Assembly: GCA_050257855.1 (NCBI GenBank)
Contig: JBLMXQ010000018.1
Coordinates: 5,486 to 69,485 of the forward strand
DNA from: Betaproteobacteria bacterium
GTDB lineage: Bacteria; Acidobacteriota; Vicinamibacteria; Vicinamibacterales; CAVVIG01
Direction of reading: 5' to 3'
DNA length: 64,000 nt
The notes beneath the pieces were generated by a model. The model worked only from the letters and a program-made list of their open reading frames with translations, had not been told where the DNA came from and made no database searches. A program made the translations under genes and the position numbers. How positions within the stretch are numbered: the first letter of the stretch is position 1; every line of letters starts with the position of its first letter. Of this stretch, positions 1 through 14,328 are shown piece by piece.

Positions 1-1
1 G

Positions 2-493
2 GACCTGAATTTCAGCGACCCGTTTCTGTCGTTTCTCACCGACGAACTGCTGCCGTGGGCACAGCGCCAGTACCACTTCACGGCCACCGCCGCGCGCACC
101 GCGCTCGGCGGAGACAGCCTGTGCGGATTGTTTGGCGCGTACGCGGCGCTCCGCCGACCCGACGTCTTCGGTGAAGTGCTCGGACAGAGCGCCGCCTTTC
201 AGTTCAACAACAGCCACTCGGTGGTCGACGGCCAGGCGCCGGAGTGGATCGTGCGCCAGTTTCAGCAGTCGCCGAAGCTCGCGGTGAAGTTCTACCTGGA
301 AGTCGGCCTGATGGAGGACCGCTCGTCTGCGGGAAGCAACGTCACCCTTCTTTCGTCGAATCGCCGGCTGCGGGATGTGTTGACCGCCAAAGGCTACGCC
401 GTGGAGTATCGTGAGGTCTACGCCGATCACAATCCCGTGCATTGGCGCCGAACGCTGCCCGATGCGCTGATGCAGCTGCTTCCGCCCGCGTAG
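2..493 (+). CDS. Fes/enterochelin-esterase-like alpha/beta hydrolase, 5'-truncated by the window
   Basis: Frame open from base 2: DLNFSDPFLSFLTDELLPW...GGDSLCGLFGAYAALRRPDVFG..QS, then YLEVGLME and ADHNPVHW; Ser elbow, acid and His in Fes-family order. Confidence 0.75.
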   Translation, partial: DLNFSDPFLSFLTDELLPWAQRQYHFTATAARTALGGDSLCGLFGAYAALRRPDVFGEVLGQSAAFQFNNSHSVVDGQAPEWIVRQFQQSPKLAVKFYLEVGLMEDRSSAGSNVTLLSSNRRLRDVLTAKGYAVEYREVYADHNPVHWRRTLPDALMQLLPPA

Positions 494-630
494 CAAACGA
501 GTACGATCGCCGCGATCTTCCGGACCCGGCCACGCTCACGCCGCGCGGACGAGCCAGCTGCAGAAGTCGTCCCGAACAGCCAGCCATAACATATTCCGTC
601 ACAATAACTTACAGTCGATCAACGTCCGTC

Positions 631-648
631 TCGAATTCCTGCCTCTCA
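631..648 (+). repeat. Degenerate direct repeat of the tRNA-Gln 3' fragment at 3841-3858 (possible decayed att site)
   Basis: TCGAATTCCTGCCTCTCA vs TCGAATCCCTGCCTCCCA, 16/18 identical, both intergenic. Confidence 0.5.
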
Positions 649-844
649 CACCCGCGAGCTCATTCTTCGACTTCGACTTCCGCTCGTCGAACTCGAAACC
701 CGTCTCCAAGACTTCTCCACGTTCAGATTCACGCTGCCGTGCGACCCTGCAGCGCCCGAGTGATCACCAGGTCGAGAGCCCGCGACAGATCGACGGCCTC
801 GAGGCGCTGCCTTGAAGGAACCACAAGTGGTAAAATGTGGTCGC

Positions 845-1120
845 ATGCGCGAGAAACGAATCGGGATTCGGGAGCTGAAGACGACGCTGAGCGAATGCGT
901 GCGCGAGGTGAAGGCCGGCAGGTCGATCGTCGTCACCGAGCATGGCCGGCCTGTGGCGCGACTCGTTCCCGAGGCGGTGTCGCTGCCGGATCGGGTCGAG
1001 ACGCTCAGGCGGGCTGGAGCGATCGCGTGGAGCGGCCGGCGGCTGCGGTCCGCGCAGGCCGCGGGTAAGGTGCGCGGGAAGAGGACCGTCGCGGATCTGC
1101 TTGTCGAGAGTCGTGAGTGA
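845..1120 (+). CDS. Phd/YefM-family type II antitoxin
   Basis: MREKRIGIRELKTTLSECVREVKAGRSIVVTEHGRPVARLVP; start 845 follows extended -10 TGG-TAAAAT (831-836); GTGA overlap with toxin. Confidence 0.88.
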   Translation: MREKRIGIRELKTTLSECVREVKAGRSIVVTEHGRPVARLVPEAVSLPDRVETLRRAGAIAWSGRRLRSAQAAGKVRGKRTVADLLVESRE

Positions 1121-1563
1121 TCGCGTATCTTGACGCCAGCGCACTCGTGAAGCGGTACGTTGTCGAGCGCCGCTCACGAGAAACGATGGCGTTCATTGCC
1201 GATGCCGAAATCGCCGCGACATCGATCGTCAGCCGCGCCGAAGTGTCGGCGGCGCTCGCTCGGGCGGCTCGCACGAAACTCGTGACGCTCGACACGGCGC
1301 GAAAGGCCCAACGAGCATTCGCTGCGGATTGGCCGGATCTGGCGCGGGTTCCGGTTACGGAAGCACTTTCGGAGCGGGCAGAGGCCCTGGCCTGGGAGTT
1401 CGGCCTGCGCGGTTACGACACGGTACAGCTCGCGTCCGCTCTCACTTGGCAAGACTCCGTCGGCGCCGACGTGGTGATCGCCACGTTTGATGCGGAACTG
1501 TGGACGGCTGCATCGATGGCTGGCCTGAAAGCCTGGCCGGATAACCTGGTCAAAGCGCAATGA
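1117..1563 (+). CDS. vapC: VapC-family PIN-domain toxin
   Basis: YLDASALVKRY, E, GYDTVQLASA and TFD acidic PIN residues; 148 aa; coupled to the antitoxin. Confidence 0.88.
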   Translation: MIAYLDASALVKRYVVERRSRETMAFIADAEIAATSIVSRAEVSAALARAARTKLVTLDTARKAQRAFAADWPDLARVPVTEALSERAEALAWEFGLRGYDTVQLASALTWQDSVGADVVIATFDAELWTAASMAGLKAWPDNLVKAQ

Positions 1564-3530
1564 AGCTCCCAACGCCCCTTCCGATCGCGCTCGGTCGATT
1601 CAAGCAGCTGCCGCAGCGTACGAACGAAGTCTGGCAAGGTGGGTTCGTGAAGCTGCCGGTATGGATCGACAACGCGCGCGACCCTGCCGGCCGGCCTTAC
1701 CGGCCCACCGGTGTGCTGTGGGTCAGCCTGCGTACCGGGCTCCTGCACATGGCGTTGCCGGACGAAGACGCTGCTGCCACTCCGGAGTTGGCGCTGCAAG
1801 CCTTGATCGAATTCGGCCTGAAGGAATCGAAACGCCTCGACGGCCGGCCGTCTGTGATCGAGGTTCGAGATGCGCAACTGCGGGACGCGCTCGGCGAGAG
1901 GCTCGCAGCGCTGAAGACGTCGGTCCGACAGATCGAAGCGTTGCCGGCAGTCGCCGAGGCGCTTCGGAGCCTCGAGGCTGCCGCCGGTAGCGGCGAGCGA
2001 CCCGCAGGCCTGCTCGAGGGCGCCGGCGTCACCGTCGACCAGGTGAGGGCGTTTGCGGACGCGGCGGCCACGTTCTATCGCGCGGCGCCATGGCGACACT
2101 TGACGAACGAAGACTTGATCGTCGTGAAGGCGCCACGGATCCCGAAAGGCATGCGCCATGTCAGCGTGCTCGGTCACGGCGGCGAAGAATTCGGCATTGC
2201 CTTCTTCGACTCGCGCGCGGCATTCGAACGCATCTACTCACGCGCCGACGCCTTTCTGCCGGCGCGCGCAGTCGGTGTCACCTACGGGCCCCTTCATGAC
2301 CTGCCATTCGCGGATGTCGACGCGTGGGAGGAACTCGGCCTCCCCGTTGCCGATCCTCACGCGTACCCGCTGGCCGCCGATCTGGCGCCTAACACGATGC
2401 GGCGGTTCGACACGACTGAGCTTCGTACATCTGAGGCGGTGCTCCGGGCGCTCGCCGATACGACCGAAGACGAGTTGGACTCCGGATCATGGCGCAAGGT
2501 GGCGAATACAATTGGTGGCGCGATCGAGGTAGAGCTGACATTGCCGTTCTTGCTCGAAACGGAGCGAAAGCATCGCAGCGGTCCGACGCTGGCCGTTATG
2601 CAGCGGCTGGCGGAGCACACCAGCGGCCGTCTCGCGCGCCTGTTCGAGAATCAAGCCTTCGAGAGCCTGGACGAAGCGAATGCGGCAATCGAACGGGCCC
2701 AAGCGGATGGCGTCCTCGACGGGAACGCCGAGGAGGCGGCTAGGCGACCGTTGAACGCGCTGGAACAGGCGCAGGAGATCGCGTACGACGCCATGGAGGC
2801 GACGGGCCGCCTGCGAATCAAACTGGCACGGCGAGCGCTTGCCGTGTCGCCGGACTGCGCGGACGCCTGTGTGATCCTGGGCGACGCAGCCGCCACCGCG
2901 GAAGAAGCAAGGGACTGGTATCAGCGCGGCGTCGAAGCTGGCGCACGCGCGCTCGGGCCCGAGAAGTTCGCCGAGTTCGCGGGCAGCTTCTGGAGTCATC
3001 TCGAAACGCGGCCCTACATGCGCGCGGGCGTCGCGCTCGCGCAGGCACTTCGTGATCTCGGGCAGTACGAAGACGCACTCAATCGATTCAGAGAACTGCT
3101 TCGGCTCAACCCCGACGATAACCAGGGGGTGCGCTATCTCCTCTTGCCCGCATTGTTCGAACGGCAGAGGAGCGCCGAGGTCGACGAACTCTTGCGTCAC
3201 TACGATGGCGACATGCAGGCGATGTGGCCGTACGCGCAAGCGCTCCGCACCTTTCAGGCGGAAGGCGATACGGAGCGCGCCCGGGACGTGCTCGCAACCG
3301 CTGTGCGGGCGAATCCGCACGTCGTCGGCTATTTGCTCGATTCCGAGGCGATTCCCCAAATCGCACCACCCCACTTTGCACTCGGCAGTCGAGACGAGGC
3401 TGCCTTCGTTGCCGAGCATCTTGCGGCGGCATTTGACGCGTCACCAGGAGCGCACGCCTGGATTCGACGAGGCGCTCGGGACCGGCGTGGCGCACGCGGT
3501 CGGCGACCGAAGCGTTCCCACACGCGGTGA
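1560..3530 (+). CDS. 656-aa uncharacterised protein: N-terminal DUF6930/DUF7309-like domains plus C-terminal TPR/helical domain
   Basis: Long ORF with ATGA overlap to vapC; C-terminal ARRALAVSPDCADA...FWSHLETRPYMRA...LNPDDNQGVRYLL TPR-like block; DUF names from recall only. Confidence 0.75.
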   Translation: MKLPTPLPIALGRFKQLPQRTNEVWQGGFVKLPVWIDNARDPAGRPYRPTGVLWVSLRTGLLHMALPDEDAAATPELALQALIEFGLKESKRLDGRPSVIEVRDAQLRDALGERLAALKTSVRQIEALPAVAEALRSLEAAAGSGERPAGLLEGAGVTVDQVRAFADAAATFYRAAPWRHLTNEDLIVVKAPRIPKGMRHVSVLGHGGEEFGIAFFDSRAAFERIYSRADAFLPARAVGVTYGPLHDLPFADVDAWEELGLPVADPHAYPLAADLAPNTMRRFDTTELRTSEAVLRALADTTEDELDSGSWRKVANTIGGAIEVELTLPFLLETERKHRSGPTLAVMQRLAEHTSGRLARLFENQAFESLDEANAAIERAQADGVLDGNAEEAARRPLNALEQAQEIAYDAMEATGRLRIKLARRALAVSPDCADACVILGDAAATAEEARDWYQRGVEAGARALGPEKFAEFAGSFWSHLETRPYMRAGVALAQALRDLGQYEDALNRFRELLRLNPDDNQGVRYLLLPALFERQRSAEVDELLRHYDGDMQAMWPYAQALRTFQAEGDTERARDVLATAVRANPHVVGYLLDSEAIPQIAPPHFALGSRDEAAFVAEHLAAAFDASPGAHAWIRRGARDRRGARGRRPKRSHTR

Positions 3531-3839
3531 TCGGTGCGGGGCGCACAGCGACAGTTCCCAACCCGAACCGAAGCGCTCTGGCGCGATGGGACAGCGCTCC
3601 GGCTGTTGATCGAGGGGAGAGAACGGCCCGCTCGAGGCCGTTGAACCCATCGGCTGAGCGGGCGGTAAACGCAAGAGCGACTACCACGGTCTCTAGAATG
3701 TCTCCACGACCGGGGCAAAATCATGAAGACGCCGGTGGACAGGAGGGAACGAATCGGACGACGCGGGTGTGTGTGATTGAGGCGCTTAGAACCAGAAGTT
3801 ACGCGCCATCACCATCTTAGAAACAAGGCCTGTTCCGAT

Positions 3840-3862
3840 TTCGAATCCCTGCCTCCCAGCCA
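3840..3862 (+). other. Isolated 3' end of tRNA-Gln (T-loop to CCA), att-like scar
   Basis: TTCGAAT-CCCTG-CCTCCCA-G-CCA = T-loop, 3' T-stem, acceptor strand (pairs with U1-type TGGGAGG), G73, CCA; no 5' half upstream. Confidence 0.72.
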
Positions 3863-3984
3863 AGCTCATCAGTACCAAGCCCAAGGTCCAATCGTCCCGA
3901 GCGCGTATAACATGCACGTTTCGTCATGCGCCGATTTGCGGAGTCGTCGCTCCGCGTTCGGCGCTCGACCGACCGCGGAGGCGC

Positions 3985-4863
3985 ATGAAGCGGGCTGTTC
4001 CGACTCTGATCTTCATATCGCTTACCATCTCGCCGTGGCCGATCGCCATCCCGTTCTCGCAGTCCGCGAAGACTCCATCTCGGGTTTCCTTCATTCGTTC
4101 GAGGGACGGAGCACGCATCGCGGTCGAATGCGCGGGAGCAGGCCCGAGTCTCCTGATTGTTCACGGAGGCACCGGAGACCGCACGCGTTGGACGCCACTG
4201 CTCCCGCTGTTTGCGTCGCACTTCACTGTCTGTGCAATGGATCGCCGCGGCCACGGCCAAAGCGAACCCGGTCCGGACTATAGCTTGACGAAAGAATTCG
4301 AGGACGTCGCGGCCGTCGCGAATTCTCGACCGGGGCCCGTGTTCGTCCTGGGCCATTCGATTGGGGGGCTGTGCGCGCTCGAAGCCGCGTTTCTCACCAA
4401 CAAGATTTCAAAGCTGGTTCTTTACGAACCACCGTTACAGGATCTTGATCACACCGCCGTCGCCGACCGAATGGAAGAAATGATCCGCGCCGGCAATCGT
4501 GAGCAGGCATTGGTGACCTTCCTGCGGGAAATCGTGATGCTCTCCCCGGCTGAAATCGCCGCGATGAAACGTCAGGCATCGTGGCCTGATCGCGTCTCTG
4601 ACATTGACGCACAAATCCGTGAGATTCGAGCGGTCAATAAGTACCGCTTTGAGGCAAAGCGGATGAGGACCTTACAGGCGCCAACTTTGCTCCTTACCGG
4701 AAGCAAAACCGCTTCGCCACAACTGAAGCAGGCCATCAATTCATTGATGGATACCTTGCCCCGCCGGACTCTCGTCGTGTTCGAAGGGCAGGAACACAAC
4801 GCGATGGATCAGATACCGCAGCAGTTCGCCGAGACGGTGACGAAGTTTCTCCTTGCCGAGTAA
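3985..4863 (+). CDS. Secreted alpha/beta fold hydrolase
   Basis: Signal-peptide-like N-terminus, HGG oxyanion motif, GHSIGG nucleophile, QEHNAM catalytic His. Confidence 0.9.
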   Translation: MKRAVPTLIFISLTISPWPIAIPFSQSAKTPSRVSFIRSRDGARIAVECAGAGPSLLIVHGGTGDRTRWTPLLPLFASHFTVCAMDRRGHGQSEPGPDYSLTKEFEDVAAVANSRPGPVFVLGHSIGGLCALEAAFLTNKISKLVLYEPPLQDLDHTAVADRMEEMIRAGNREQALVTFLREIVMLSPAEIAAMKRQASWPDRVSDIDAQIREIRAVNKYRFEAKRMRTLQAPTLLLTGSKTASPQLKQAINSLMDTLPRRTLVVFEGQEHNAMDQIPQQFAETVTKFLLAE

Positions 4864-5322
4864 TCCACTGGTAGACCGCGTCCGCGGTTATCCGCATGCA
4901 CTGAACAGGGTGTTGCTGACAGCCAAGATCGACTGGAGACAAGCAGGATCACCGTGCATATTCCGCACTCTTACCGCCGGCGGTCGACGAGCATCGCCGG
5001 CATTGCAGGCGCGGGGCCGTCACCCGGCTTGTTCGAGTACAGGTTCCTCGTCAGTCATTTGGCAGTGGGATCTGCTTTCGGCAGCGCTCGCGTTTCCTGT
5101 CGTCAAGTACGGAGTGTTGGCGTGGTCATATTTCACGAGCTAGCGGGACACGCACGCACCGCGCTCCCATGAAGACAAGGCTCGCCGGCACGGCGTTCGC
5201 GATCGGGCTGCTGGTGGCATCGATCGCGGGTCATCCGGGCGCTGGTCTGGTGGATCGGCGGCACGCTCCCACGAGTCAACGACGTCCGACTCGACACGGT
5301 TGGCGTCGAGTGCGACGCTCCG

Positions 5323-5463
5323 GCCGCCCTCAATCATCCGCACATCTGCACGCTCCACGACACCGTTCGGCTGTCTGCTCCATGAAATGCTGACGGGCCG
5401 TCGTGCGTTCGAGGGCAAAACGCAGGCGAGCGTCATCGCGGCGATTCTCGAGCGCGAACCAGC
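5323..5463 (+). pseudogene. Hanks-type Ser/Thr kinase relic with large internal deletion
   Basis: AALNHPHICTLHD (subdomain IV region) joined out of frame to FGCLLHEMLTGRRAFEGKTQASVIAAILEREP (subdomain IX-X). Confidence 0.75.
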
Positions 5464-5465
5464 AT

Positions 5466-5630
5466 CTCGCCTGACGGGCGGTGGCTCGCATGCGTGGGTT
5501 ATCACAGATCGATCGTGACGCCGCATTCATCGATAAAGACGTACTGCCAGGCGTCACGCACATGTTGCGCAGCCAGATGGAATTCGTCGTGCTGCCGGTT
5601 CTCGAGTCGCGCGACGCCAACGGCTTCGAG
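5466..5630 (-). mobile_element. IS630-family transposase fragment
   Basis: Minus strand ...AAQHVRDAWQYVFIDECGVTIDL** (YVFIDECGVTIDL at 5543-5505) resembles the first-Asp VFxDE motif of IS630 DDE domains; stops follow. Confidence 0.5.
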
Positions 5631-5633
5631 TGA

Positions 5634-6158
5634 TCAGCGTGGTTCGAATCCCGAAGACCTCGTTGACGATGCCGACCCGCCGCGTTCCGTGGGCGAGGGG
5701 TCATTGCCGATGTCGGCGATGCATCGCCATTCGCCGTCCGAATCGCGGCGCCAGATGGACACGCCGCGCCCGTGCATTGTTGTGATCGCGCCGCCCGGCC
5801 CCGGCATCGTCGTCTCGTTGCTGCCGCGCAGGTAGGCCATGCCGCCGTTCGGCGAGAAAACGGGATTTTCGGACACCCAGCGGATCGAAAACCCCGGCAT
5901 CTGCAGCATGCGGGTCACGTACTTGCGAATCTCGGCTTTACCTGCGTGCGCCGGTTCGCCCGGCTCCATCATCACCGCATCGTCGGCGAAGTACGAGAGG
6001 GCCTTCTCGACATCTTTTCCAGCCGCGGCCGCCGACCACTCGGCGTCGAGGCGCAGCAGTTTCTGGCCTTCGGCCGACGCATTGAAAGACGGCCGCGCAC
6101 AAGCGGGGATCAGGAGCAGGGCCAGCGGCAGCCATCGCAACCTGCGGGACGCAATCAT
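5634..6158 (-). CDS. DUF4440/YybH (NTF2-like) exported protein, possibly lipoprotein
   Basis: RBS AAGGAGG before ATG 6158; LLLIPAC signal; LDAEWSAAAAGKDVEKALSYFADDAV...GRGVSIWRRDSDGEWRCIAD. Confidence 0.8.
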   Translation of the reverse strand: MIASRRLRWLPLALLLIPACARPSFNASAEGQKLLRLDAEWSAAAAGKDVEKALSYFADDAVMMEPGEPAHAGKAEIRKYVTRMLQMPGFSIRWVSENPVFSPNGGMAYLRGSNETTMPGPGGAITTMHGRGVSIWRRDSDGEWRCIADIGNDPSPTERGGSASSTRSSGFEPR

Positions 6159-6300
6159 GAGGGCCTCCTTGAACATCGGGTGACTCGGCTCGCATGCGAA
6201 GATAGGCCCGCCGGGCCGGGTGCGCCAAGACGACAAAGGCGGCCGTACGGCACGCGGCCCTCTTTGGCCACCGCCCTGGACGGAGGACTAGAATGTGCGC

Positions 6301-7914
6301 GTGCCGGCTATCGGGGGCGATCGGCTCGATTCCTGGAAGGAAATCGCCGCGTATCTCAATCGCGGCGTTCGCACCGTTCGCCGCTGGGAGAAGGACGAAG
6401 GCCTGCCCGTCCATCGGCATGTGCACCGCACGCAGGGCAGCGTGTACGCGTTCAAGTCGGAAATCGAGGCGTGGCGCCAGTCCGCGGCCCGCCGGCCGGC
6501 GAAACGTCCGCCCGAGGCGACGTCGATCGCTGTGCTGCCGTTCGCGAATCTGAGCGCGGATCCCGAGAACGAATACTTCGCCGACGGCCTGACGGACGAA
6601 GTCACGGCCGACCTGTCGACGGTGCGCGCGCTGCGCGTCATCTCACGCACGTCGTCGATGGCCCTCAAGGGCACGACGAAGGATCTCAGGACGATCGCCG
6701 GCGATCTTGGCGTGCGCTATCTGCTGGAGGGCAGCGTGCGCCGCGCAGGCGGTCGGCTGCGGATCACGGCCCAGCTGATCGACGCTGCGACCGACGCGCA
6801 CCTGTGGGCCGACAAGTACGACGGCTCCGTCGACGACATTTTTGCGTTCCAATCGACCCTGGCGCGCATGATTGTGAACGCGCTCGAGCTGCGGCTGAGC
6901 ACCGACGAAGAGCGCAGGCTGACGCGTCGGCCGATCCCGAACCTCCTGGCGTACGAGTGCTACCTTCGCGCCCGGCACGAAGGCTGGCGCTGGCGACGGG
7001 ACGCCATCGACCGCGCCATTCAACTCCTCGAGCAGGGTCTCGCGATCGTCGGGCCTAATGCCTCGCTGTACGCCGCACTCGGCCAGGCGCACCTGCAATA
7101 CCGCGAAGCTGGCATCGACCTCGGAGAGGGGCCGATCAAGAAAGCGGATGAGTGCGCGGCGAAACTGTTCGCGCTCGATTCGCAGTCAGCATCCGCCCTG
7201 CAACTGCGCGGCTGGATTCACTATTCGCGCGGGGCCATCCAGGACGCGGTCCGCGATCTGCAAGCAGCCCTCGCCGTCGATCCGAACAATGCGGACACGT
7301 TGGGATTGCTGAGCAACTGCTGCCTGATCTCCGGCAAGGTTACGGCCGGCCGTGCCTACGTGGCGCGGTTGCTGGCGGTCGATCCGCTCACCCCGCTGAA
7401 TCACTGCATGCCAGGCTTCGCCGACATCCTGGAAGGGCACTTCGAATCAGTCGAGGCTCCGTACCGTCAGATGTTCGAGATGGATCGCGCCAACCCCATG
7501 GCACGGCTCTTTTACGTCTGGGTGCTCATCCTGACGAAGCGGACCGACGCAGTCGATCCTATCGTGGAATCGTTTCCACCCGAGGAGCGCGAGACCGTTC
7601 CCGCGCGCATCGCACTTTTTCTGGCTCGCGCGCTGTCCGGAGACGCCGAGCGCGCCCACCGGGCGGTCACACCGGATATCGAACGCCTTGCGGCAGAGAG
7701 CGACATCTTCGCGCGCCTGCTCGCGCACGGTTACGCTCTAGCCGGCATGCCGGACTGCGCTCTGCACTGGCTCGGTGTCGCCATCGGGCGCGGGTTCATC
7801 AACTATCCGTTCCTTGCGAAGCACGACCCACTCCTGGCGTCGCTTCGCGGTGACCCACGATTTCAGGAGCTCCTCGCGATCACGCGCGAGCGGTGGGTGC
7901 GGTTCGAGGCGTAA
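6301..7914 (+). CDS. N-terminal HTH-like domain + TolB-like N-domain + TPR protein
   Basis: DRLDSWKEIAAYLNRGVRTVRRWEK; SIAVLPFANLSADPENEYFADGLT; TPR repeats; start GTG 6301 chosen because TAGAAT lies 6 nt upstream (ORF track start 6295). Confidence 0.85.
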   Translation: MPAIGGDRLDSWKEIAAYLNRGVRTVRRWEKDEGLPVHRHVHRTQGSVYAFKSEIEAWRQSAARRPAKRPPEATSIAVLPFANLSADPENEYFADGLTDEVTADLSTVRALRVISRTSSMALKGTTKDLRTIAGDLGVRYLLEGSVRRAGGRLRITAQLIDAATDAHLWADKYDGSVDDIFAFQSTLARMIVNALELRLSTDEERRLTRRPIPNLLAYECYLRARHEGWRWRRDAIDRAIQLLEQGLAIVGPNASLYAALGQAHLQYREAGIDLGEGPIKKADECAAKLFALDSQSASALQLRGWIHYSRGAIQDAVRDLQAALAVDPNNADTLGLLSNCCLISGKVTAGRAYVARLLAVDPLTPLNHCMPGFADILEGHFESVEAPYRQMFEMDRANPMARLFYVWVLILTKRTDAVDPIVESFPPEERETVPARIALFLARALSGDAERAHRAVTPDIERLAAESDIFARLLAHGYALAGMPDCALHWLGVAIGRGFINYPFLAKHDPLLASLRGDPRFQELLAITRERWVRFEA

Positions 7915-8053
7915 TCGCGCGTTCACACCTCGGGAAGGAACACGATTCCGGAACGGTCGTACGCTCGAATTTCTCGGTCGATCATCTCGCCATCGATCCC
8001 GGCTAGACTTCACGATTGATGTAGGTCTTCCGCGCCTGCGTGGATCTGTTCGA

Positions 8054-8434
8054 ATGAAGCAAAACGCAATCTTGGTCGTCACGTCTCTGCTCTCGATCCT
8101 CTTGCTGACGCTTCACATTACGGACGACATCGTCCGTGGGATATCGAAGGCCGAGCCCTCGAACATTGCGCTGCTCGTCCTTGCGGTCTTCCTGTACGGG
8201 ACGCTCGTGCTCGCCGAACGGCGATCGGGGCACGTCATCATGCTGCTCGTCGGCTTGTTCGCGGCGGCCATGCCCGTCATGCACATGAGGGGGGCACATT
8301 ACGGCGAGATCGCCAAGTCCGCCGGCGGCTTCTTCTTCGTCTGGACACTCTGGGCGCTCGGCGGGCTCGGGGGCGTCACCGTCATCCTCTCGGCGCGCGG
8401 ACTGTGGAGTCTGCGACGGGGCCAGCCGCGGTAG
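8054..8434 (+). CDS. Small membrane protein (about 4 TM helices)
   Basis: MKQNAILVVTSLLSILLLTLHITDDIVRG...; four hydrophobic segments; coding-like codon use. Confidence 0.75.
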   Translation: MKQNAILVVTSLLSILLLTLHITDDIVRGISKAEPSNIALLVLAVFLYGTLVLAERRSGHVIMLLVGLFAAAMPVMHMRGAHYGEIAKSAGGFFFVWTLWALGGLGGVTVILSARGLWSLRRGQPR

Positions 8435-8456
8435 TCGCAACTTCAGGGCCGACTAC
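8431..8456. repeat. Degenerate GTAG-type REP-like hairpin
   Basis: GTAGTCG-caacttcagggc-CGACTAC; contains CTGAAG on the minus strand like the 21332 hairpin. Confidence 0.35.
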
Positions 8457-8619
8457 GCGGCACGGATGAGCCCGTTGCGGAAAATCGTCCCGAACAGCCC
8501 GGCCAAATCCAAGTTCGAATCGCAATCCCAGTGTCTGAAGACGGCTGCGGCGGTTTCGAACTCCTCCCGCCTGACTTGTCAACGCAACAGAGGAGTCCCT
8601 CGCCATCTCAGACCTAGAA

Positions 8620-8775
8620 CGGGTTGAGGGTTCGCGTGGGCGGACCAGCTCGCGGGAAACCGTCGCGGCAGTCGGTCATGTACTTGCCTCCGAAAACGCC
8701 GAGGCGCAGCATCTGCTTCGACGTGAGCTGCGGGCTCGAACCCGGGGCCGAGGTTCCGCCGACCGGTTCGACACA
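8620..8775 (-). pseudogene. Relic of a conserved uncharacterised family carrying the GVFGGKYMTDC motif
   Basis: Minus strand EPVGGTSAPGSSPQLTSKQMLRLGVFGGKYMTDCRDGFP, then frameshift to ASWSAHA; no start or C-terminus; family recognised from memory. Confidence 0.55.
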
Positions 8776-8826
8776 GAATCGAGACGAGCCGCGCGTTCCG
8801 CAAGGTGGCGGCCGACATCTTCTGTC

Positions 8827-9594
8827 TCAGGATCCGCCGCCAGACTGCGGCGTCGGCACGAGACGTCCGATGTCGAACCCGTTGTCTCGGGCGGCCGTCC
8901 GCGCCGCAGCGACGGACTCGTCGTTCAGATGCGGCGTCCGAGCGAGAATCCACAAGTAGTTCCGGTCGGGATCGCCGACGACCGCCCATGAGTAGTCCGG
9001 CGCGAGGCCGATGATCCAGTAATCTCCCCAGACGATCGGCAGCCACGACAGCCATGCGGGAGCGAACCGCACCTTCAGTCTGGCGAAGGTCTGCGTATCG
9101 ATGATGCGTGCGACGCCGCGCGCCTCGGTCTGACCGTCGGCGGTCCGGCACCGGTTCACCACGTCGAGGCGTCCGTCGGGGCGCCGGACGTAGCTGGCGC
9201 GCACGTCGCCGAGGCACTGACGCTGAAACCGATTGGGGAACCGCGCGATCTCGAACCAGTCGCCCGCATATCGATTCAGATCGACGAAGGGAACCGTCCG
9301 AACCGCCGCCGGCGTCTGCGCCAGCGCGGCGGCCGGCGGCAGCGTCGCCGCGGCGGCGAGAACGACCGCCGCCGCCCATCGGCGTGCGACCCGGGAATGC
9401 GCGCGGCCGACGCTGGCCCGCCCGATTCGATGGCGGTGCGCGAACGACAGGGTGAGCACAGGCCGGAGCAGGGCTGCCGCGACACGGTTCAGCGCGCCGT
9501 GGCGGGAGACCGCGCAGCCGCCTTCCTCGAGCACTCGAAGAAGGCGGCTGACGTTGTATCCGCTGGCGCCGGTGAGCAGGATCATGGCGGCCAT
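8827..9594 (-). CDS. blc: Bacterial lipocalin (Blc-like) with a chimeric N-terminal extension
   Basis: VDLNRYAGDWFEIARFPNRFQ (GxW), GDYWII, YLWILARTP; extension begins MILLTGASGY (Rossmann-fold remnant); true start uncertain. Confidence 0.8.
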   Translation of the reverse strand: MAAMILLTGASGYNVSRLLRVLEEGGCAVSRHGALNRVAAALLRPVLTLSFAHRHRIGRASVGRAHSRVARRWAAAVVLAAAATLPPAAALAQTPAAVRTVPFVDLNRYAGDWFEIARFPNRFQRQCLGDVRASYVRRPDGRLDVVNRCRTADGQTEARGVARIIDTQTFARLKVRFAPAWLSWLPIVWGDYWIIGLAPDYSWAVVGDPDRNYLWILARTPHLNDESVAAARTAARDNGFDIGRLVPTPQSGGGS

Positions 9595-9606
9595 GCTCCG
9601 ATCGTG

Positions 9607-10101
9607 CTATTCGACCGGCGGAAGCAGGACGGTGTCAACGACGTGAATGACGCCGTTGCTCGCGGCGATGTCGGTCTTGACGACCCGCGCCTTGCCCACC
9701 ATCACGGTGCCGCCGCTGACCTCGATGGGCAGCGTGTCACCGCTGACCGCTTTCGCGGAACTGAGCTTCACGACATCGACCGCCATCACCATGCCCGGCA
9801 CGACGTGATAGGTGAGCACGCGCCGAAGCTGCGCCTTGTTCTCCGGCTTCAGGAGATCGTCGAGCGTGCCCGCGGGCAGCCTGGCGAACGCCTCGTCGGT
9901 CGGCGCGAAGACGGTGAAGGGGCCCGGCTCCTTGAGCGTGGCGACGAGGTCGGCCGCCGCGAGCGCCCTGGCGAGCGTCGTAAACGATCCGGCTGCGACC
10001 GCCGTGTCGACGATGTCCCTGGTCTGCTGGGCGCGAGCCGGTGAGGCCGCGCCTAGGATTCCGACGAGCGCGAGCGAGGTGAACGCGAGCATGGTCTTCA
10101 T
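9607..10101 (-). CDS. Fasciclin (FAS1) domain secreted protein
   Basis: [37 protein letters not shown]; RBS AAGGAG; signal peptide. Confidence 0.95.
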
Positions 10102-10138
10102 GTGCACTCCTTGAAACAGGAACCGGGTGGTACTCGAA

Positions 10139-10378
10139 TCACGCGTGGTGGCCTGCCGGCTGCATCCAGCGGCCCTGGACGCGCTTCCAGAAGAGCGCCT
10201 GGTACAGGCCAGCCGCGCCGACCAGCCCGTACACGACAGCGGTCAATGCGGAGACCTCGCCAAAGGAGAGGCCGAACAGCGCGGCAACGAGATCGAACCG
10301 CGCGACGGCGACGAGTCCCCAGTTCAGCGCGCCGACAGCGACGAGCACGGCCGCAACGACATCGATGAGTTTCATCAC
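10139..10378 (-). CDS. DUF378 membrane protein
   Basis: [26 protein letters not shown]...[11 protein letters not shown]; RBS AGGAGG. Confidence 0.9.
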
Positions 10379-10393
10379 GTACCTCCTGATTTG

Positions 10394-10421
10394 ACTATAA
10401 TGAAATTAATTGTGCATACAA
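10394..10421 (-). promoter_or_regulatory. Sigma70-type promoter of the DUF378-fasciclin-lipocalin operon
   Basis: TTGTAT-N16-TATAGT in an AT-rich island, upstream of RBS AGGAGG. Confidence 0.6.
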
Positions 10422-10506
10422 ATAGAAACCAAGCCGCGGGGCAAACTCGTGTGAGCCTCGCGACAAGAACGGCGCGGAATGTGAACCACAGTCAAACGAG
10501 GAGCCG

Positions 10507-11094
10507 ATGCTGTCGAAGACGCTGCAGGACGGACTGACTGACTACGGGATTGGCGCCAAGATTCGCGCGCTGCGCCTGAAGAAGAAGATTGGCCTCGTCG
10601 ACCTTGGAAAGCACACCGGGCTGTCGGCGGCGCTCCTCTCGAAAATCGAGCGTGGACGGCTGTTCCCCACGCTGCCGACGCTGCTGCGCATCGCGCTCGT
10701 CTTTGGTGTCGGCCTGGAGTACTTCTTCGCCGGCGCGCGTGAAAGGCCGCTCGTCGTGATGACGAGGAAGAACCAGCGCGTGGAGCTTCCCGAGCGCCTC
10801 GGGGCGCGCGAGGCCGCCTATCGGTTCGCGTCGCTCGACTACCCGGCGACCGAGCGGCGCTTCAACTGCTACCGCGCGGAGTTCTTTCCGGTGGCGCGCG
10901 AGAAGCTACGGCCTCACGACCATCCGGGCGTCGAGTTCATCTACGTGATGGACGGGATCCTGAGTGTCCACATGAACGGCGGGGAACATGCGCTCGAGGC
11001 GGGCGACGCGATCTACTTCGATGCGACCATTCCACACGCGTACCGGCGCAGTGGCGGCCGACGGTGCAGCGCCCTCGTCGTTACCGCCCCTTAA
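10507..11094 (+). CDS. XRE-family HTH regulator with C-terminal cupin
   Basis: IGAKIRALRLKKKIGLVDLGKHTGLSAALLSKIERG; HDHPGVEFIYV...FDATIPHAY. Confidence 0.92.
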   Translation: MLSKTLQDGLTDYGIGAKIRALRLKKKIGLVDLGKHTGLSAALLSKIERGRLFPTLPTLLRIALVFGVGLEYFFAGARERPLVVMTRKNQRVELPERLGAREAAYRFASLDYPATERRFNCYRAEFFPVAREKLRPHDHPGVEFIYVMDGILSVHMNGGEHALEAGDAIYFDATIPHAYRRSGGRRCSALVVTAP

Positions 11095-11232
11095 GGCGAG
11101 CGAACGGCGGTTTCGACGCCGGCGACGGGTCACGCGGCCGGTGCTCTGTAACGGCGCTCGTGACACATCCGCGTGTCAGCTGAACGGCGCCGGGCGCGAT
11201 CATTCCGGTCGGGCCGCTTGCCGCCTTTTCCC

Positions 11233-11278
11233 TTGACGGCCTAGGAGAGCGGCCATACACTCCTAGGCTACCTAGGAG
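11233..11278 (+). promoter_or_regulatory. padR promoter with CCTAGG operator repeats
   Basis: TTGACG-N17-TACACT; CCTAGGAG(11240)..CTCCTAGG(11267) inverted repeat; third CCTAGGAG at 11271. Confidence 0.7.
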
Positions 11279-11287
11279 AAGTCATCC

Positions 11288-11629
11288 GTGCCGCGACAGC
11301 TCGAACTCCTGCAGGGCACTCTCGACATGCTCATCCTCAAGGCTGTTTCCCTCGGCCCGCTGCATGGGTATGGAATCCTGCTGCGCATCAAGCAGGTGTC
11401 GAAGGAACGCCTGGAGGTTCAGCAGGGGTCGCTGTATCCGGCGCTCTATCGCCTGGAACACCAGGGCTGGATCGCAAGTGAGTGGGGGGCGTCAGACAAC
11501 AATCGCAGAGCCAGGTACTACCGCCTTACGGCCGCAGGGAAGCGCAGACTTCAACAGGAGACCGACAACTGGAACCGCATGGCGGAAGTGATTGCAGGGA
11601 TTCTGGGAACAAGGCCGGAGGAAGTATGA
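11288..11629 (+). CDS. padR: Acidobacterial PadR-family regulator
   Basis: LELLQGTLDMLILKAV...LHGYGI...QQGSLYPALYRLE..GWI..EWGASDNNRRARYY. Confidence 0.93.
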   Translation: MPRQLELLQGTLDMLILKAVSLGPLHGYGILLRIKQVSKERLEVQQGSLYPALYRLEHQGWIASEWGASDNNRRARYYRLTAAGKRRLQQETDNWNRMAEVIAGILGTRPEEV

Positions 11630-14328
11630 GGCTTTGGAGCCGTCTTCGCCTGTGGCTGCGAGCCACGCTGCAGCGCTCTCGGATCGAGAGCGAGATGAAC
11701 GCGGAACTCCATTTCCATATCGAGGCCTACACGGAAGACCTGATGCGCGGTGGCCTCTCGCGCGGGGAAGCGATGCGCCGGGCAAGGCTGGATTTCGGCG
11801 GAGCAGAGGGAGTCAAGGAGGAATGCCGCGCGGCACGCGGCACGCAATTTCTTGACACTCTGGCACAGGACCTTCGGTATGCCGTTCGTACGCTGCGCAG
11901 ATCCCCCGGTTTCGCAAGCGTCGCCGTCTTGACCCTCGCGCTCGGGATCGGAGCCAACACGGCGATCTTCAGCGTCGTGAATGGCGTCCTGCTGAAGCCT
12001 CTCCCTTATCCCGATCCGGAACAACTCGTAAGCGTGGAGCTCAGCCCACTCGCGCTGAACCCGTCATTGCGCGGCATGGCGCCAGAGGATTATTTCGTCT
12101 TTCGTGACCAGAGCCGCACCTTTCAGGACATCGGTTTATATGCGGAGACCGACGCCGACCGCGACGTGAACGTCACCGGCTTCGCGGAGCCGGAACGCGT
12201 GCATGCCCTCGATGTGACGGATGGCGTTCTGTCGACGTTAGGCGTGCCGCCCCTGCTCGGCCGCATCTTCTCCCGGGCGGACGATTCTCCCGGGGCGCCG
12301 CTCACCGCTATCGTGACGTATGGCTACTGGCAACGAAGATTCGGCGCGGATCCTGCCGTGATCGGGAAGGCCATCGTCGTGGACGGGGAAGCGCGCGAAA
12401 TCATCGGCGTGCTGCCCCGTAATTTCCGTTTTCTCGATCAGCAGGATCTGAGCTTGATTCTGCCGCTCCAGCTGGATCGCAACAAGACCTACCTGGGTGA
12501 CTTCAGCTACTTCGGCATCGGACGTCTCAGCTCGGGGAGCACCCTCGCCGACGCCAACGCGGACGTCGCGCGGATGCTTCCCATTGCCCTGGACAGCTTT
12601 CCCGTTCCGCCCGGTCTCAGCTCCGATTTCCTCGAGAAGGCCCGTCTCGCTCCGAGCCTTGTGCCGCTGAAACAGGACATTGTCGGCGATCTCGGCACGG
12701 TACTCTGGGTGCTGATGGGCAGTATCGGACTGGTTCTGCTCATCGCCTGCGCCAACGTGGCGAATCTTCTGCTGGTGCGCACCGAGGGCCGTCAGCACGA
12801 GCTGGCCCTCCGAGCCGCGCTTGGCGCCAGCCGCCGGCGCGTCGCCGTTCAATTGCTCCGCGAGAACGCGATCCTTGGCCTGCTCGGCGGCATCTTCGGT
12901 CTCGGGCTGGCCTACGCCGCTTTGCGCGTTCTGGTCAGGTTCGCGCCGCCTGGACTCCCGCGCATCAGTGACATCGGCATCGATCCGCCCGTGCTTCTCT
13001 TTGCGCTGCTGCTCGCGATCTTTGCCAGTCTGCTTTCCGGGCTGATTCCAGTGGTCAAGCACGCCGGCCTCCGCGCGGGCCTTGCCGAAAACGGTCGAAC
13101 TGCCAGTCAGAGCCGAGAACGTCATCGCGCTCACGACCTGCTGGTTGCCCTGCAGGTCGCCCTCGCCCTCGTGCTGCTGATTTGTTCAGGTCTGATGATT
13201 CGTACTTTTGGCATCTTGACGCGCGTCGACCCCGGATTCGCAGGTCCCTCCGAACTTCAGACATTTCGCATTTCCATTGCGCATTCCGACGTGCCGGACG
13301 CCGCCAACGTCCCTCGGATGGAACAAGAGATCGTGGACAAGCTGGCGGCGATTCCCGGCGTGCCCTCGGCCGCTTTCGCGAGCGCCGTCCCCATGGACGG
13401 AGACAACCGTCTGGATAACGTGTTCGCAGCCGACCGTGTCTACGCGCAGGGCGCGTTGCCCCCGCTTCGACATCTCCTGTTCGTCTCGCCCGGATATTTT
13501 CGCACTCTGGGTATACCGGTCATCGCCGGCCGTGATCTCACCTGGACCGATACCTACAACAGAGTTCCGGTTGCACTGATCTCGGAAAACTTCGCCCGCG
13601 AGTACTGGGGCACGCCCGCCGGTGCGCTTGGCAGGCGCATTCGGATCTCCGCCACCGACGACTGGCGTGAAATCGTCGGCGTTGTCGGCGATGTGCACGA
13701 TGACGGGTTGGACAAGCCCGCCCGCACGAATGTCTACTGGCCCGTCCTGCTGGCACGCTTCCGCGGCCAGCCGCTCCGTGCCGATCGGTACGTCACTTTC
13801 GTCGTTCGTAGCCCTCTTGCCGGATCCGGCAGCTTCATGCACCAGGTTCGGCAGGCGGTCTGGTCCGTCGATGCCAAGCTCCCGCCTGCCGGCTTCAACA
13901 CGCTGGACTTCTTCTACGCCAGATCCCTGGCGCGCACGTCGTTCACCCTGGTGATGCTGGGTATTGCGGGCGCCATGGCCCTGCTTCTGGGCGCAATAGG
14001 GCTCTACGGTGTTATCGCCTACTCGGTTTCGCAACGCACTCGCGAAATCGGCATTCGTATGGCGCTCGGTGCGCTGCCGCAGGATGTCCTCAGGCCAATT
14101 GTGGGCGGCGGCATGGCTGTTGTTTCTGTCGGGCTCTCGATCGGCATCGTGGCCGCACTGGCTTTCAGCCGCCTTCTGTCGTCAATGCTCTTTGGCGTCC
14201 GGCCCGAGGATCCCCTCACCTACTCGGCGGTGGTGTTTCTGCTGGGCGCCGTCGCGTTAATCGCCTGCTACATCCCGGCGCGCCGCGCGACGCGCGTCCA
14301 CCCGGTGGTGGCGCTCAGGTGCGAGTAG
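11626..14328 (+). CDS. ADOP-type duplicated ABC permease (MacB_PCD/FtsX x2)
   Basis: ATGA overlap with padR; TLALGIGANTAIFSVVNGVLLKPLP; LLIACANVANLLL; RTREIGIRMALGA; IPARRATRVHPVVALRCE. Confidence 0.93.
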   Translation: MRLWSRLRLWLRATLQRSRIESEMNAELHFHIEAYTEDLMRGGLSRGEAMRRARLDFGGAEGVKEECRAARGTQFLDTLAQDLRYAVRTLRRSPGFASVAVLTLALGIGANTAIFSVVNGVLLKPLPYPDPEQLVSVELSPLALNPSLRGMAPEDYFVFRDQSRTFQDIGLYAETDADRDVNVTGFAEPERVHALDVTDGVLSTLGVPPLLGRIFSRADDSPGAPLTAIVTYGYWQRRFGADPAVIGKAIVVDGEAREIIGVLPRNFRFLDQQDLSLILPLQLDRNKTYLGDFSYFGIGRLSSGSTLADANADVARMLPIALDSFPVPPGLSSDFLEKARLAPSLVPLKQDIVGDLGTVLWVLMGSIGLVLLIACANVANLLLVRTEGRQHELALRAALGASRRRVAVQLLRENAILGLLGGIFGLGLAYAALRVLVRFAPPGLPRISDIGIDPPVLLFALLLAIFASLLSGLIPVVKHAGLRAGLAENGRTASQSRERHRAHDLLVALQVALALVLLICSGLMIRTFGILTRVDPGFAGPSELQTFRISIAHSDVPDAANVPRMEQEIVDKLAAIPGVPSAAFASAVPMDGDNRLDNVFAADRVYAQGALPPLRHLLFVSPGYFRTLGIPVIAGRDLTWTDTYNRVPVALISENFAREYWGTPAGALGRRIRISATDDWREIVGVVGDVHDDGLDKPARTNVYWPVLLARFRGQPLRADRYVTFVVRSPLAGSGSFMHQVRQAVWSVDAKLPPAGFNTLDFFYARSLARTSFTLVMLGIAGAMALLLGAIGLYGVIAYSVSQRTREIGIRMALGALPQDVLRPIVGGGMAVVSVGLSIGIVAALAFSRLLSSMLFGVRPEDPLTYSAVVFLLGAVALIACYIPARRATRVHPVVALRCE

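Follow-up and report, generated by a model that had tools for sequence, protein, structure and literature searches.

Type II toxin-antitoxin (TA) pairs of the Phd/YefM-VapC kind have thousands of close relatives that stand as two-gene units, some of them beside transposase genes. In tripartite TA systems a third component is added, as in the toxin-antitoxin-chaperone systems with a SecB-like chaperone. At transfer RNA (tRNA) genes, direct repeats of 44 nucleotides (nt) that run from about the anticodon stem-loop to the tRNA 3' end are the signature of tyrosine integrases. Here, we report on a chain of three overlapping genes at positions 845-3530 of a 64,000-nt stretch of acidobacterial DNA (contig JBLMXQ010000018.1, positions 5,486 to 69,485; C18 of genome G000 in our numbering), which we call the window. 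The chain consists of a Phd-type antitoxin gene, a vapC toxin gene (together vapBC), and a third gene, gene 3, for a 656-aa protein that ends in tetratricopeptide repeats (TPR). A reading of this DNA from its letters alone (the sequence-only reading) had suggested that gene 3 is a sensor or chaperone gating the toxin, possibly against phages, or else cargo stabilised by the TA pair. From the comparisons below, we consider it likely that an ordinary two-gene TA cassette has been joined by deletion to an unrelated accessory gene at a tRNA-Gln site, and that the locus is not a tripartite TA system.

Three overlapping genes and their promoter

The elements of the chain are the following (window positions).

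820..842, + strand, promoter and putative operator of the cassette (from sequence and conservation in related cassettes)
845..1120, + strand, Phd/YefM-family antitoxin, 91 aa (ATG 845, TGA 1118-1120; PF02604, TIGR01552)
1117..1563, + strand, VapC toxin (PIN-domain RNase), 148 aa (GTG 1117, TGA 1561-1563; PF01850)
1560..3530, + strand, gene 3, 656 aa, intact (ATG 1560, TGA 3528-3530; Pfam, AlphaFold2)

The three overlapping open reading frames (ORFs) that the sequence-only reading described, i.e., a GTGA/ATGA chain of Phd, VapC and a 656-aa TPR protein, agree with our coordinates and Pfam matches, the Phd and VapC frames sharing GTGA at 1117-1120 and those of VapC and gene 3 sharing ATGA at 1560-1563. 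The start of gene 3 at 1560 aligns with the N-terminus of its homologs, in which M1 is nearly invariant, and homologs without an upstream toxin gene have the same first residue and the same MxLxxPLPxALGRFKQLPQR opening; the ATGA overlap is therefore real and ATG 1560 is the native start.

Upstream of the antitoxin gene, an inverted repeat, ACCAC-AA-GTGGT, lies at 820-831 and a third GTGGT at 837-841, and an extended -10 element, TGgTAAAAT (828-836), is embedded in these repeats and ends 8 nt before ATG 845. The ACCAC-AA-GTGGT / TAAAAT / GTGGT block is kept in two related contigs, L105 and L106, whose homology with the window starts at this block (815-818), and the -10/GTGGTC arrangement is kept in L108 and L117. 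We regard the ACCAC/GTGGT repeats as a putative operator of the cassette. As to the leaderless-type promoter of the earlier proposal, a consensus scan for promoters and terminators found neither here, a -35 being absent; what stands is the -10 element close to the ATG and its conservation in homologous cassettes, with which an mRNA that is leaderless or nearly so, its ATG following directly after the -10, is plausible.

A plain type II toxin-antitoxin pair

The antitoxin matches PF02604 (PhdYeFM_antitox; E 4e-9, 36.5 bits against a cut-off of 29.8) and, in NCBIfam, TIGR01552 (E 3e-9, 36 bits against a cut-off of 20.8), and the toxin matches PF01850 (PIN; E 3e-7, 31.6 bits against a cut-off of 23.6). 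The VapC acidic residues D6, E42 and D125 are invariant and D101 is nearly so (alignment A4). The pair has the defining traits of a type II TA module, i.e., a Phd/YefM-domain antitoxin directly upstream of the toxin and a PIN domain with conserved acidic residues. A PHROGs scan returned nothing except a weak antitoxin match.

The VapC family holds at least 2545 related protein clusters at E<=1e-10. Where the contexts of VapC relatives were read, a 91-93-aa Phd and a 146-151-aa PIN protein overlap by 4 nt and are followed by unrelated genes, and a transposase gene precedes some of the pairs. Phd identity in the related cassettes is 72-92%, and relatives at 28-79% VapC identity are plain two-gene cassettes. 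Neither gene 3 nor a piece of it was found within 3 kb in any of 56 more distant VapC relatives from metagenomes.

The junction between vapC and gene 3 in related contigs

The junction is confined to the closest VapC clade (80-84% identity), where vapC is followed, right after its stop, by sequence homologous to the gene 3 start. L106 has the order Phd-VapC-ATGA-gene 3, with gene 3 being 80% identical over 137 codons to the contig end and carrying TAA for CAA at codon 26. In L121-L123, which come from three samples, 28 gene 3 codons are kept before a 1-nt deletion leads to a stop, and homology ends at window position 1656. About 25 nt (about 8 codons) of gene 3 are left in L105, and nothing is left in L117-L120 (VapC 83%). 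Phd and VapC are full-length in all of these contigs (L105, L106, L117-L120, L121-L123). This pattern indicates that the fusion arose once, in the ancestor of the small VapC clade, and that gene 3 was later lost repeatedly with the pair persisting. Since gene 3 was lost repeatedly and vapBC stayed intact, gene 3 behaves as an unrelated neighbour, the opposite of a chaperone-type third component.

The contigs bear directly on the idea of a tripartite TA or defence system, in which gene 3 would sense a signal or chaperone the antitoxin and in this way gate VapC. The tight 4-nt overlaps and the single promoter are what such a system would show, the TPR and predicted RNase H-like domains of gene 3 could bind partners, and the junction is common to L106, L121-123 and L105. 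Nevertheless, we hold it to be very improbable. Co-conservation of gene 3 and vapBC is absent in both directions, from gene 3 loci as well as from VapC relatives, and every other junction contig has gene 3 broken or lost beside an intact vapBC, whereas loss of a chaperone would release the toxin. In Pfam and NCBIfam, gene 3 has DUF6930, DUF7309 and ST7/TPR only and no SecB-like chaperone or regulator domain. None of the three proteins matches a PADLOC-DB 2.0 family at E<=0.1, and the anti-phage role that had been suggested is likewise not supported.

Apart from the junction, a second, internally deleted copy of vapC (L121:1908-2112; 84% identity to window positions 1158-1316 and 1500-1548) is present in L121, some 900 nt downstream of its intact vapBC and gene 3 remnant. 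This suggests a local duplication or rearrangement.

Distribution and neighbours of gene 3

Gene 3 has relatives in 258 protein clusters at E<=1e-3 and, by a degenerate-pattern scan, in at least 587 species genomes, with Acidobacteriota, Planctomycetota, Methylomirabilota, Eisenbacteria, Chloroflexota and others among the phyla. It is rare in its own phylum (9/301 genomes; 1/30 relatives) and is absent from the same-genus genome (G001). For the 80 best gene 3 loci from genomes, flanking genes were called and then clustered. The largest neighbour family reaches 5 of the 80 loci, i.e., gene 3 has no conserved neighbour, and the order Phd-VapC-gene 3 is repeated in none of them. How often gene 3 homologs lie directly after vapBC had been put forward as a check on the gating role, and this result goes against it, as do the four closest full-length homologs (P0002, P0003, P0005 and P0013; 68-71% identity), which have no TA pair directly upstream and whose upstream spacers measure 115-1110 nt. 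Besides copies of the tRNA-derived attachment site (att) described below, the sequence before Phd showed no homology with the upstream regions of TA-less gene 3 homologs.

TA genes do occur in the wider surroundings of the family. A phmmer search with the Phd and VapC of the window gave two real cases near gene 3 homologs: in L054 the pair lies 2.3 kb upstream, three genes intervening, and in L048 an orphan Phd is the direct upstream neighbour. The Pfam tally over 150 small neighbours was PIN 2, PemK 2 and Uma2 4. Directly downstream of gene 3 homologs are VapBC in L005, PemK in L024 and a CopG antitoxin in L042. In L001, a gene 3 homolog of 67% identity is preceded, at a distance of 166 nt, by a MazEF-type pair (L001:5219-5834; a 104-aa ORF and a PemK toxin, E 2e-21), which puts a second, unrelated TA type in the position that vapBC has here.

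An islet array at tRNA-Gln

The chain lies in a segment bounded by copies of a tRNA 3' end, and the elements of this array are listed here by window position unless a contig is named.

C18:4203-4276, intact tRNA-Gln(CTG), 1.2 kb before the window start (ARAGORN on the genome)
2..493, + strand, 3' part of an enterochelin-esterase-like gene (full gene G000:C18:4563-5978; Pfam Esterase and Enterochelin_N)
633..654, + strand, degenerate copy of the tRNA-Gln 3' end, 17/22, left boundary of the 3.2-kb segment
3840..3863, + strand, perfect 24-nt direct repeat of the tRNA-Gln(CTG) 3' end (TTCGAATCCCTGCCTCCCAGCCA plus 1 nt), right boundary, attR-type scar

In blastn against its own genome, the repeat at 3840-3863 is 100% identical to C18:4254-4277 over 24 nt. 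A direct repeat of the tRNA 3' end thus bounds a segment beside the intact tRNA, as in a tRNA-integrated islet, and the att-bounded segment of the sequence-only reading is confirmed by the tRNA-Gln, the perfect copy and the degenerate copy together. Between the intact tRNA-Gln and the degenerate copy, the tRNA-proximal islet carries the enterochelin-esterase-like gene alone; the 3.2-kb segment from 633-654 to 3840-3863 holds Phd, VapC and gene 3 as its sole genes. The array spans 5.1 kb (G000:C18:4203-9348, window -1282 to 3863), with a short GGTTCGAATCCC fragment at C18:4423-4434, and no integrase, i.e., no tyrosine or serine recombinase, was found in the 5.1 kb between the tRNA-Gln and the right att copy. 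Please note that ARAGORN finds no tRNA on the window, the tRNA-Gln lying just outside, that Rfam gave no match in window positions 1-12000, and that general repeat finding did not pick up the att copies, whose exact seeds are short.

The same tRNA end turns up elsewhere. A 23-mer of it recurs in other contigs, frequently as a 44-nt copy that starts near the anticodon stem-loop and reaches the 3' end. On the gene 3 side, two 44-nt att copies flank a 4.36-kb islet with gene 3 and an ERCC4 nuclease gene in L081, a full tRNA and a partial copy lie 300 nt before gene 3 in L082, an att copy lies 1.8 kb before gene 3 in L001 with the MazEF-type pair between, and an att copy before gene 3 in L116 is inferred from 14 nt at the contig start. 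On the vapBC side, an att copy lies 133-142 nt after vapC in L108-115, L124 and L129, and just before Phd in L117-120 and L123; L121 and L123 share the scar at 633-654 and its flank, with a perfect att copy 43 nt further left. Both gene families thus lodge repeatedly in the tRNA-Gln islet arrays of this group of soil bacteria, recurring at copies of the tRNA end in other contigs.

In an empty-site comparison, the same-genus genome remains syntenic for only about 80 nt past the tRNA-Gln, and synteny does not return within 9 kb. A second, identical tRNA-Gln(CTG) is present at G000:C103:5216-5289, on a 5.8-kb contig. C103 was rejected as an empty site, its upstream flank being 76-78% identical to C18 and its downstream flank unrelated; this locus is either paralogous or contamination from a related organism.

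The islet structure and the TA neighbours also allow another account, i.e., that an addictive vapBC guards the islet and gene 3 with it from loss, gene 3 being beneficial in itself and linked to the pair by inheritance and not by mechanism. As far as the arrangement goes, cargo next to a TA pair in an att-bounded segment, as the sequence-only reading had it, is what we find, in the form of a tRNA-Gln islet with gene 3 as a rare accessory gene that the same-genus genome lacks. A 3.2-kb att-bounded segment with these three genes alone is in keeping with such protection, as are the other TA types beside gene 3 homologs (MazEF-type in L001, Phd in L048, VapBC in L005, PemK in L024, CopG in L042) and the transposase genes that adjoin some vapBC relatives. 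However, gene 3 was lost or broken regardless in L105, L106 and L121-123, and TA genes would be enriched just as well if both merely collect in variable regions. We judge this account possible but unlikely, and favour the joining of two unrelated units by deletion.

Three points weigh against the explanation we favour. L106 retains the exact 4-nt overlap, and L123 and L105 nearly do, i.e., the fusion has outlasted some divergence, and there could be selection for coupled expression. The stop codon of L106 is known from one assembled contig. Finally, several TA types flank gene 3 homologs more than they would flank a random gene, and a looser tie, such as stabilised cargo or a shared defence-island context, may exist between them.

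Domains and predicted fold of gene 3

Gene 3 carries DUF6930 (PF22007) at aa 12-139 (E 2e-11; nt 1593-1976), DUF7309 (PF23988) at nt 2058-2564 (Pfam match aa 167-228, E 6.5e-8) and ST7 (PF04184) with TPR repeats at aa 413-613 (E 1.3e-8, 34.2 bits against a gathering cut-off of 24.3), the ST7 match covering only profile positions 175-396 of 533. The ST7-like TPR solenoid occupies nt 2598-3497 and is followed by an Arg-rich tail. The three domains occur together in at least 120 listed homologs. In our literature search, no paper on DUF6930 or DUF7309 was found, and nothing useful on bacterial ST7.

The AlphaFold2 models are confident, with mean predicted local distance difference test scores of 91.2 (full length) and 93.9 (aa 1-340 alone). 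In the prediction, the N-terminal half forms two alpha/beta domains, with the order beta-beta-beta-alpha-beta-alpha-beta-alpha occurring twice. A PDB sequence search with this half gave no match, while in Foldseek against the PDB the top 20 of 20 hits for aa 1-340 are RNase H-like folds (retroviral integrase cores, TnsB, PRP8) at modest scores (E from 5.6e-4, target-normalised TM-score about 0.5). The N-terminal half is predicted to comprise two domains of RNase H-like fold. The C-terminal half matches generic TPR proteins alone, in sequence as well as in structure comparison with the PDB.

Among 91 homologs, D252 is invariant, an acidic residue occupies position 254 in 96%, and E292 is conserved in 87% and D185 in 78%, with Q in 16/91; in the first domain, E/D23 is kept in 91% and D104 in 85%. 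Because D185 is kept in just 78% of the homologs, we stop short of proposing a DDE active site. The TPR part contains the family's strongest motifs (TRPYMRA, 483-489; NPxDNQG, 517-523), and gene 3 carries all family-invariant residues. We take gene 3 to be a cytoplasmic scaffold or nucleic-acid-binding protein that acts independently of vapBC.

The two halves also exist as separate genes: ST7/TPR-half proteins of about 320-330 aa are found in most of L073, L076, L077, L080, G092, G202 and G269, the one in L073 being longer, and G095 has a 325-aa protein with the N-terminal half alone.

In four of the gene 3 loci, from Bacillota, two Planctomycetota and Eisenbacteria, a tRNA on the same strand lies 85-310 nt ahead of the gene 3 homolog, with no other gene in between.

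L008:5725-5799, tRNA-Thr before the gene 3 homolog
L022:3992-4062, tRNA-Gly before the gene 3 homolog
L029:3740-3829, tRNA-Ser before the gene 3 homolog
L040:5654-5728, tRNA-Cys before the gene 3 homolog

By our own estimate (about 47 tRNAs in a 5-Mb genome), the chance expectation for such loci is about 0.1, against the four seen. A search past gene 3 in these four loci gave no att repeats, no integrase was found among the scanned neighbours in L008, L029 and L040, and the neighbours of the four homologs look like housekeeping genes.

The fold and the tRNA adjacency raise the question of a mobility protein, i.e., of gene 3 as a new RNase H-fold (DDE-like) recombinase for integrase-less tRNA islets, vapBC being its addiction module. 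Structurally, the N-terminal half comes closest to retroviral integrase cores and the TnsB transposase, D252 and the largely acidic positions 254 and 292 are well kept, no integrase domain was found among the genes scanned in gene 3 islets, and no other gene separates gene 3 from the att copy before it in L081, L082 and L116 (L116 from its 14 nt) or from the real tRNA in the four loci just listed. Yet there is no strict DDE triad, position 185 being variable as given above, and the structural matches, weak at E about 5e-4 and TM about 0.5, are generic for this fold. The 44-nt direct repeats, with their extent from near the anticodon stem-loop up to the 3' end, point to tyrosine integrases, the search in the four tRNA-adjacent loci gave no att repeats past gene 3, the neighbours there resemble housekeeping genes, and the majority of gene 3 homologs are away from tRNA. 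A recombinase role is therefore highly unlikely in our judgement. In a broader form, the DUF6930-DUF7309-ST7 protein would be a new RNase H-fold (DDE-like) enzyme of mobility or nucleic-acid processing that goes with, or drives, integrase-less tRNA islets in several phyla, with vapBC as its addiction partner here, and to this form we likewise give very little credence. TA flanking and tRNA adjacency of the homologs fit life in variable regions, and leave a mobility role a low probability.

Other features of the window

A 72-nt intergenic stretch after gene 3 (3576-3647) is 85% identical to the same-genus genome at G001:C3:1410010-1410080 and has no Rfam match. Further on, 389 nt at 8053-8441 are 92% identical to G001:C3:23298-23685 of that genome, while the 14 kb around them are at most 74% identical to it or unmatched; the ORF at 7775-8434, which overlaps this stretch, has no Pfam match. 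At 5300-5560, an ORF fragment resembles the C-lobe of a Ser/Thr protein kinase (MLTGRRAFEGKT...) and is probably a truncated kinase gene; 56 nt within it (5505-5560) match many sites in related genomes at 85-91%. An 18-nt repeat (564-581 and 8482-8499) is at chance level and was not used.

A model of the locus

In the explanation we favour, VapC would be a PIN-domain RNase toxin neutralised by the Phd-type antitoxin, and Phd probably represses its own promoter through the ACCAC/GTGGT repeats, which overlap the extended -10. Gene 3 would be an independent accessory gene that normally stands alone behind its own upstream region. Both units would live in arrays of small islets at tRNA-Gln(CTG) in one acidobacterial lineage, delimited by copies of the tRNA 3' part, typically with vapBC 133-142 nt before a tRNA copy and gene 3 0.3-1.8 kb after one. 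A deletion across such an islet junction may have removed the spacer and brought the native gene 3 ATG onto the vapC stop. Most likely, the TA promoter here drives transcription of gene 3 as well and its translation is coupled to that of vapC, and this coupled expression would be a by-product of the fusion, with no gating or chaperoning of the toxin. The three-gene "operon" would then be a frozen accident that islet accretion and deletion left behind at a tRNA hot spot, in which a selfish TA pair outlasts the gene fused to it. Tight gene overlaps alone are no proof of a functional unit, and this trio may serve as a caution.

Comparison with known systems

With the Phd/YefM-VapC type II pairs, the cassette shares the antitoxin-toxin order, the 4-nt overlap, the sizes of 91 and 148 aa, the PIN acidic residues and a palindrome over the promoter; unlike them, here and in three sister lineages the vapC stop overlaps or abuts the start of a gene that does not belong to the cassette. 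Three genes, probably coupled in translation, behind one promoter recall the tripartite TA systems, but the third gene here is not co-conserved with the pair, shows neither a chaperone nor a regulator domain, and is dispensed with in the sister contigs.

The surroundings resemble integrase-less tRNA islet arrays, in which an intact tRNA-Gln is followed by segments bounded by 24-44-nt direct copies of its 3' part, the cargo differs among relatives, and same-genus synteny ends just past the tRNA; the difference is that a deletion has probably taken out an internal islet boundary here and so created the gene fusion. The locus adds a documented tRNA-Gln islet array with recurrent residents in uncultured soil Acidobacteriota. 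As for DUF6930, DUF7309 and ST7, gene 3 is above all three gathering thresholds, and we predict an RNase H-like fold for its N-terminal half; with this prediction, the widespread DUF6930-DUF7309-ST7 family, members of which are often neighbours of tRNA genes, receives its first structural description, i.e., two predicted RNase H-like domains and a TPR solenoid in which TRPYMRA and NPxDNQG are invariant.

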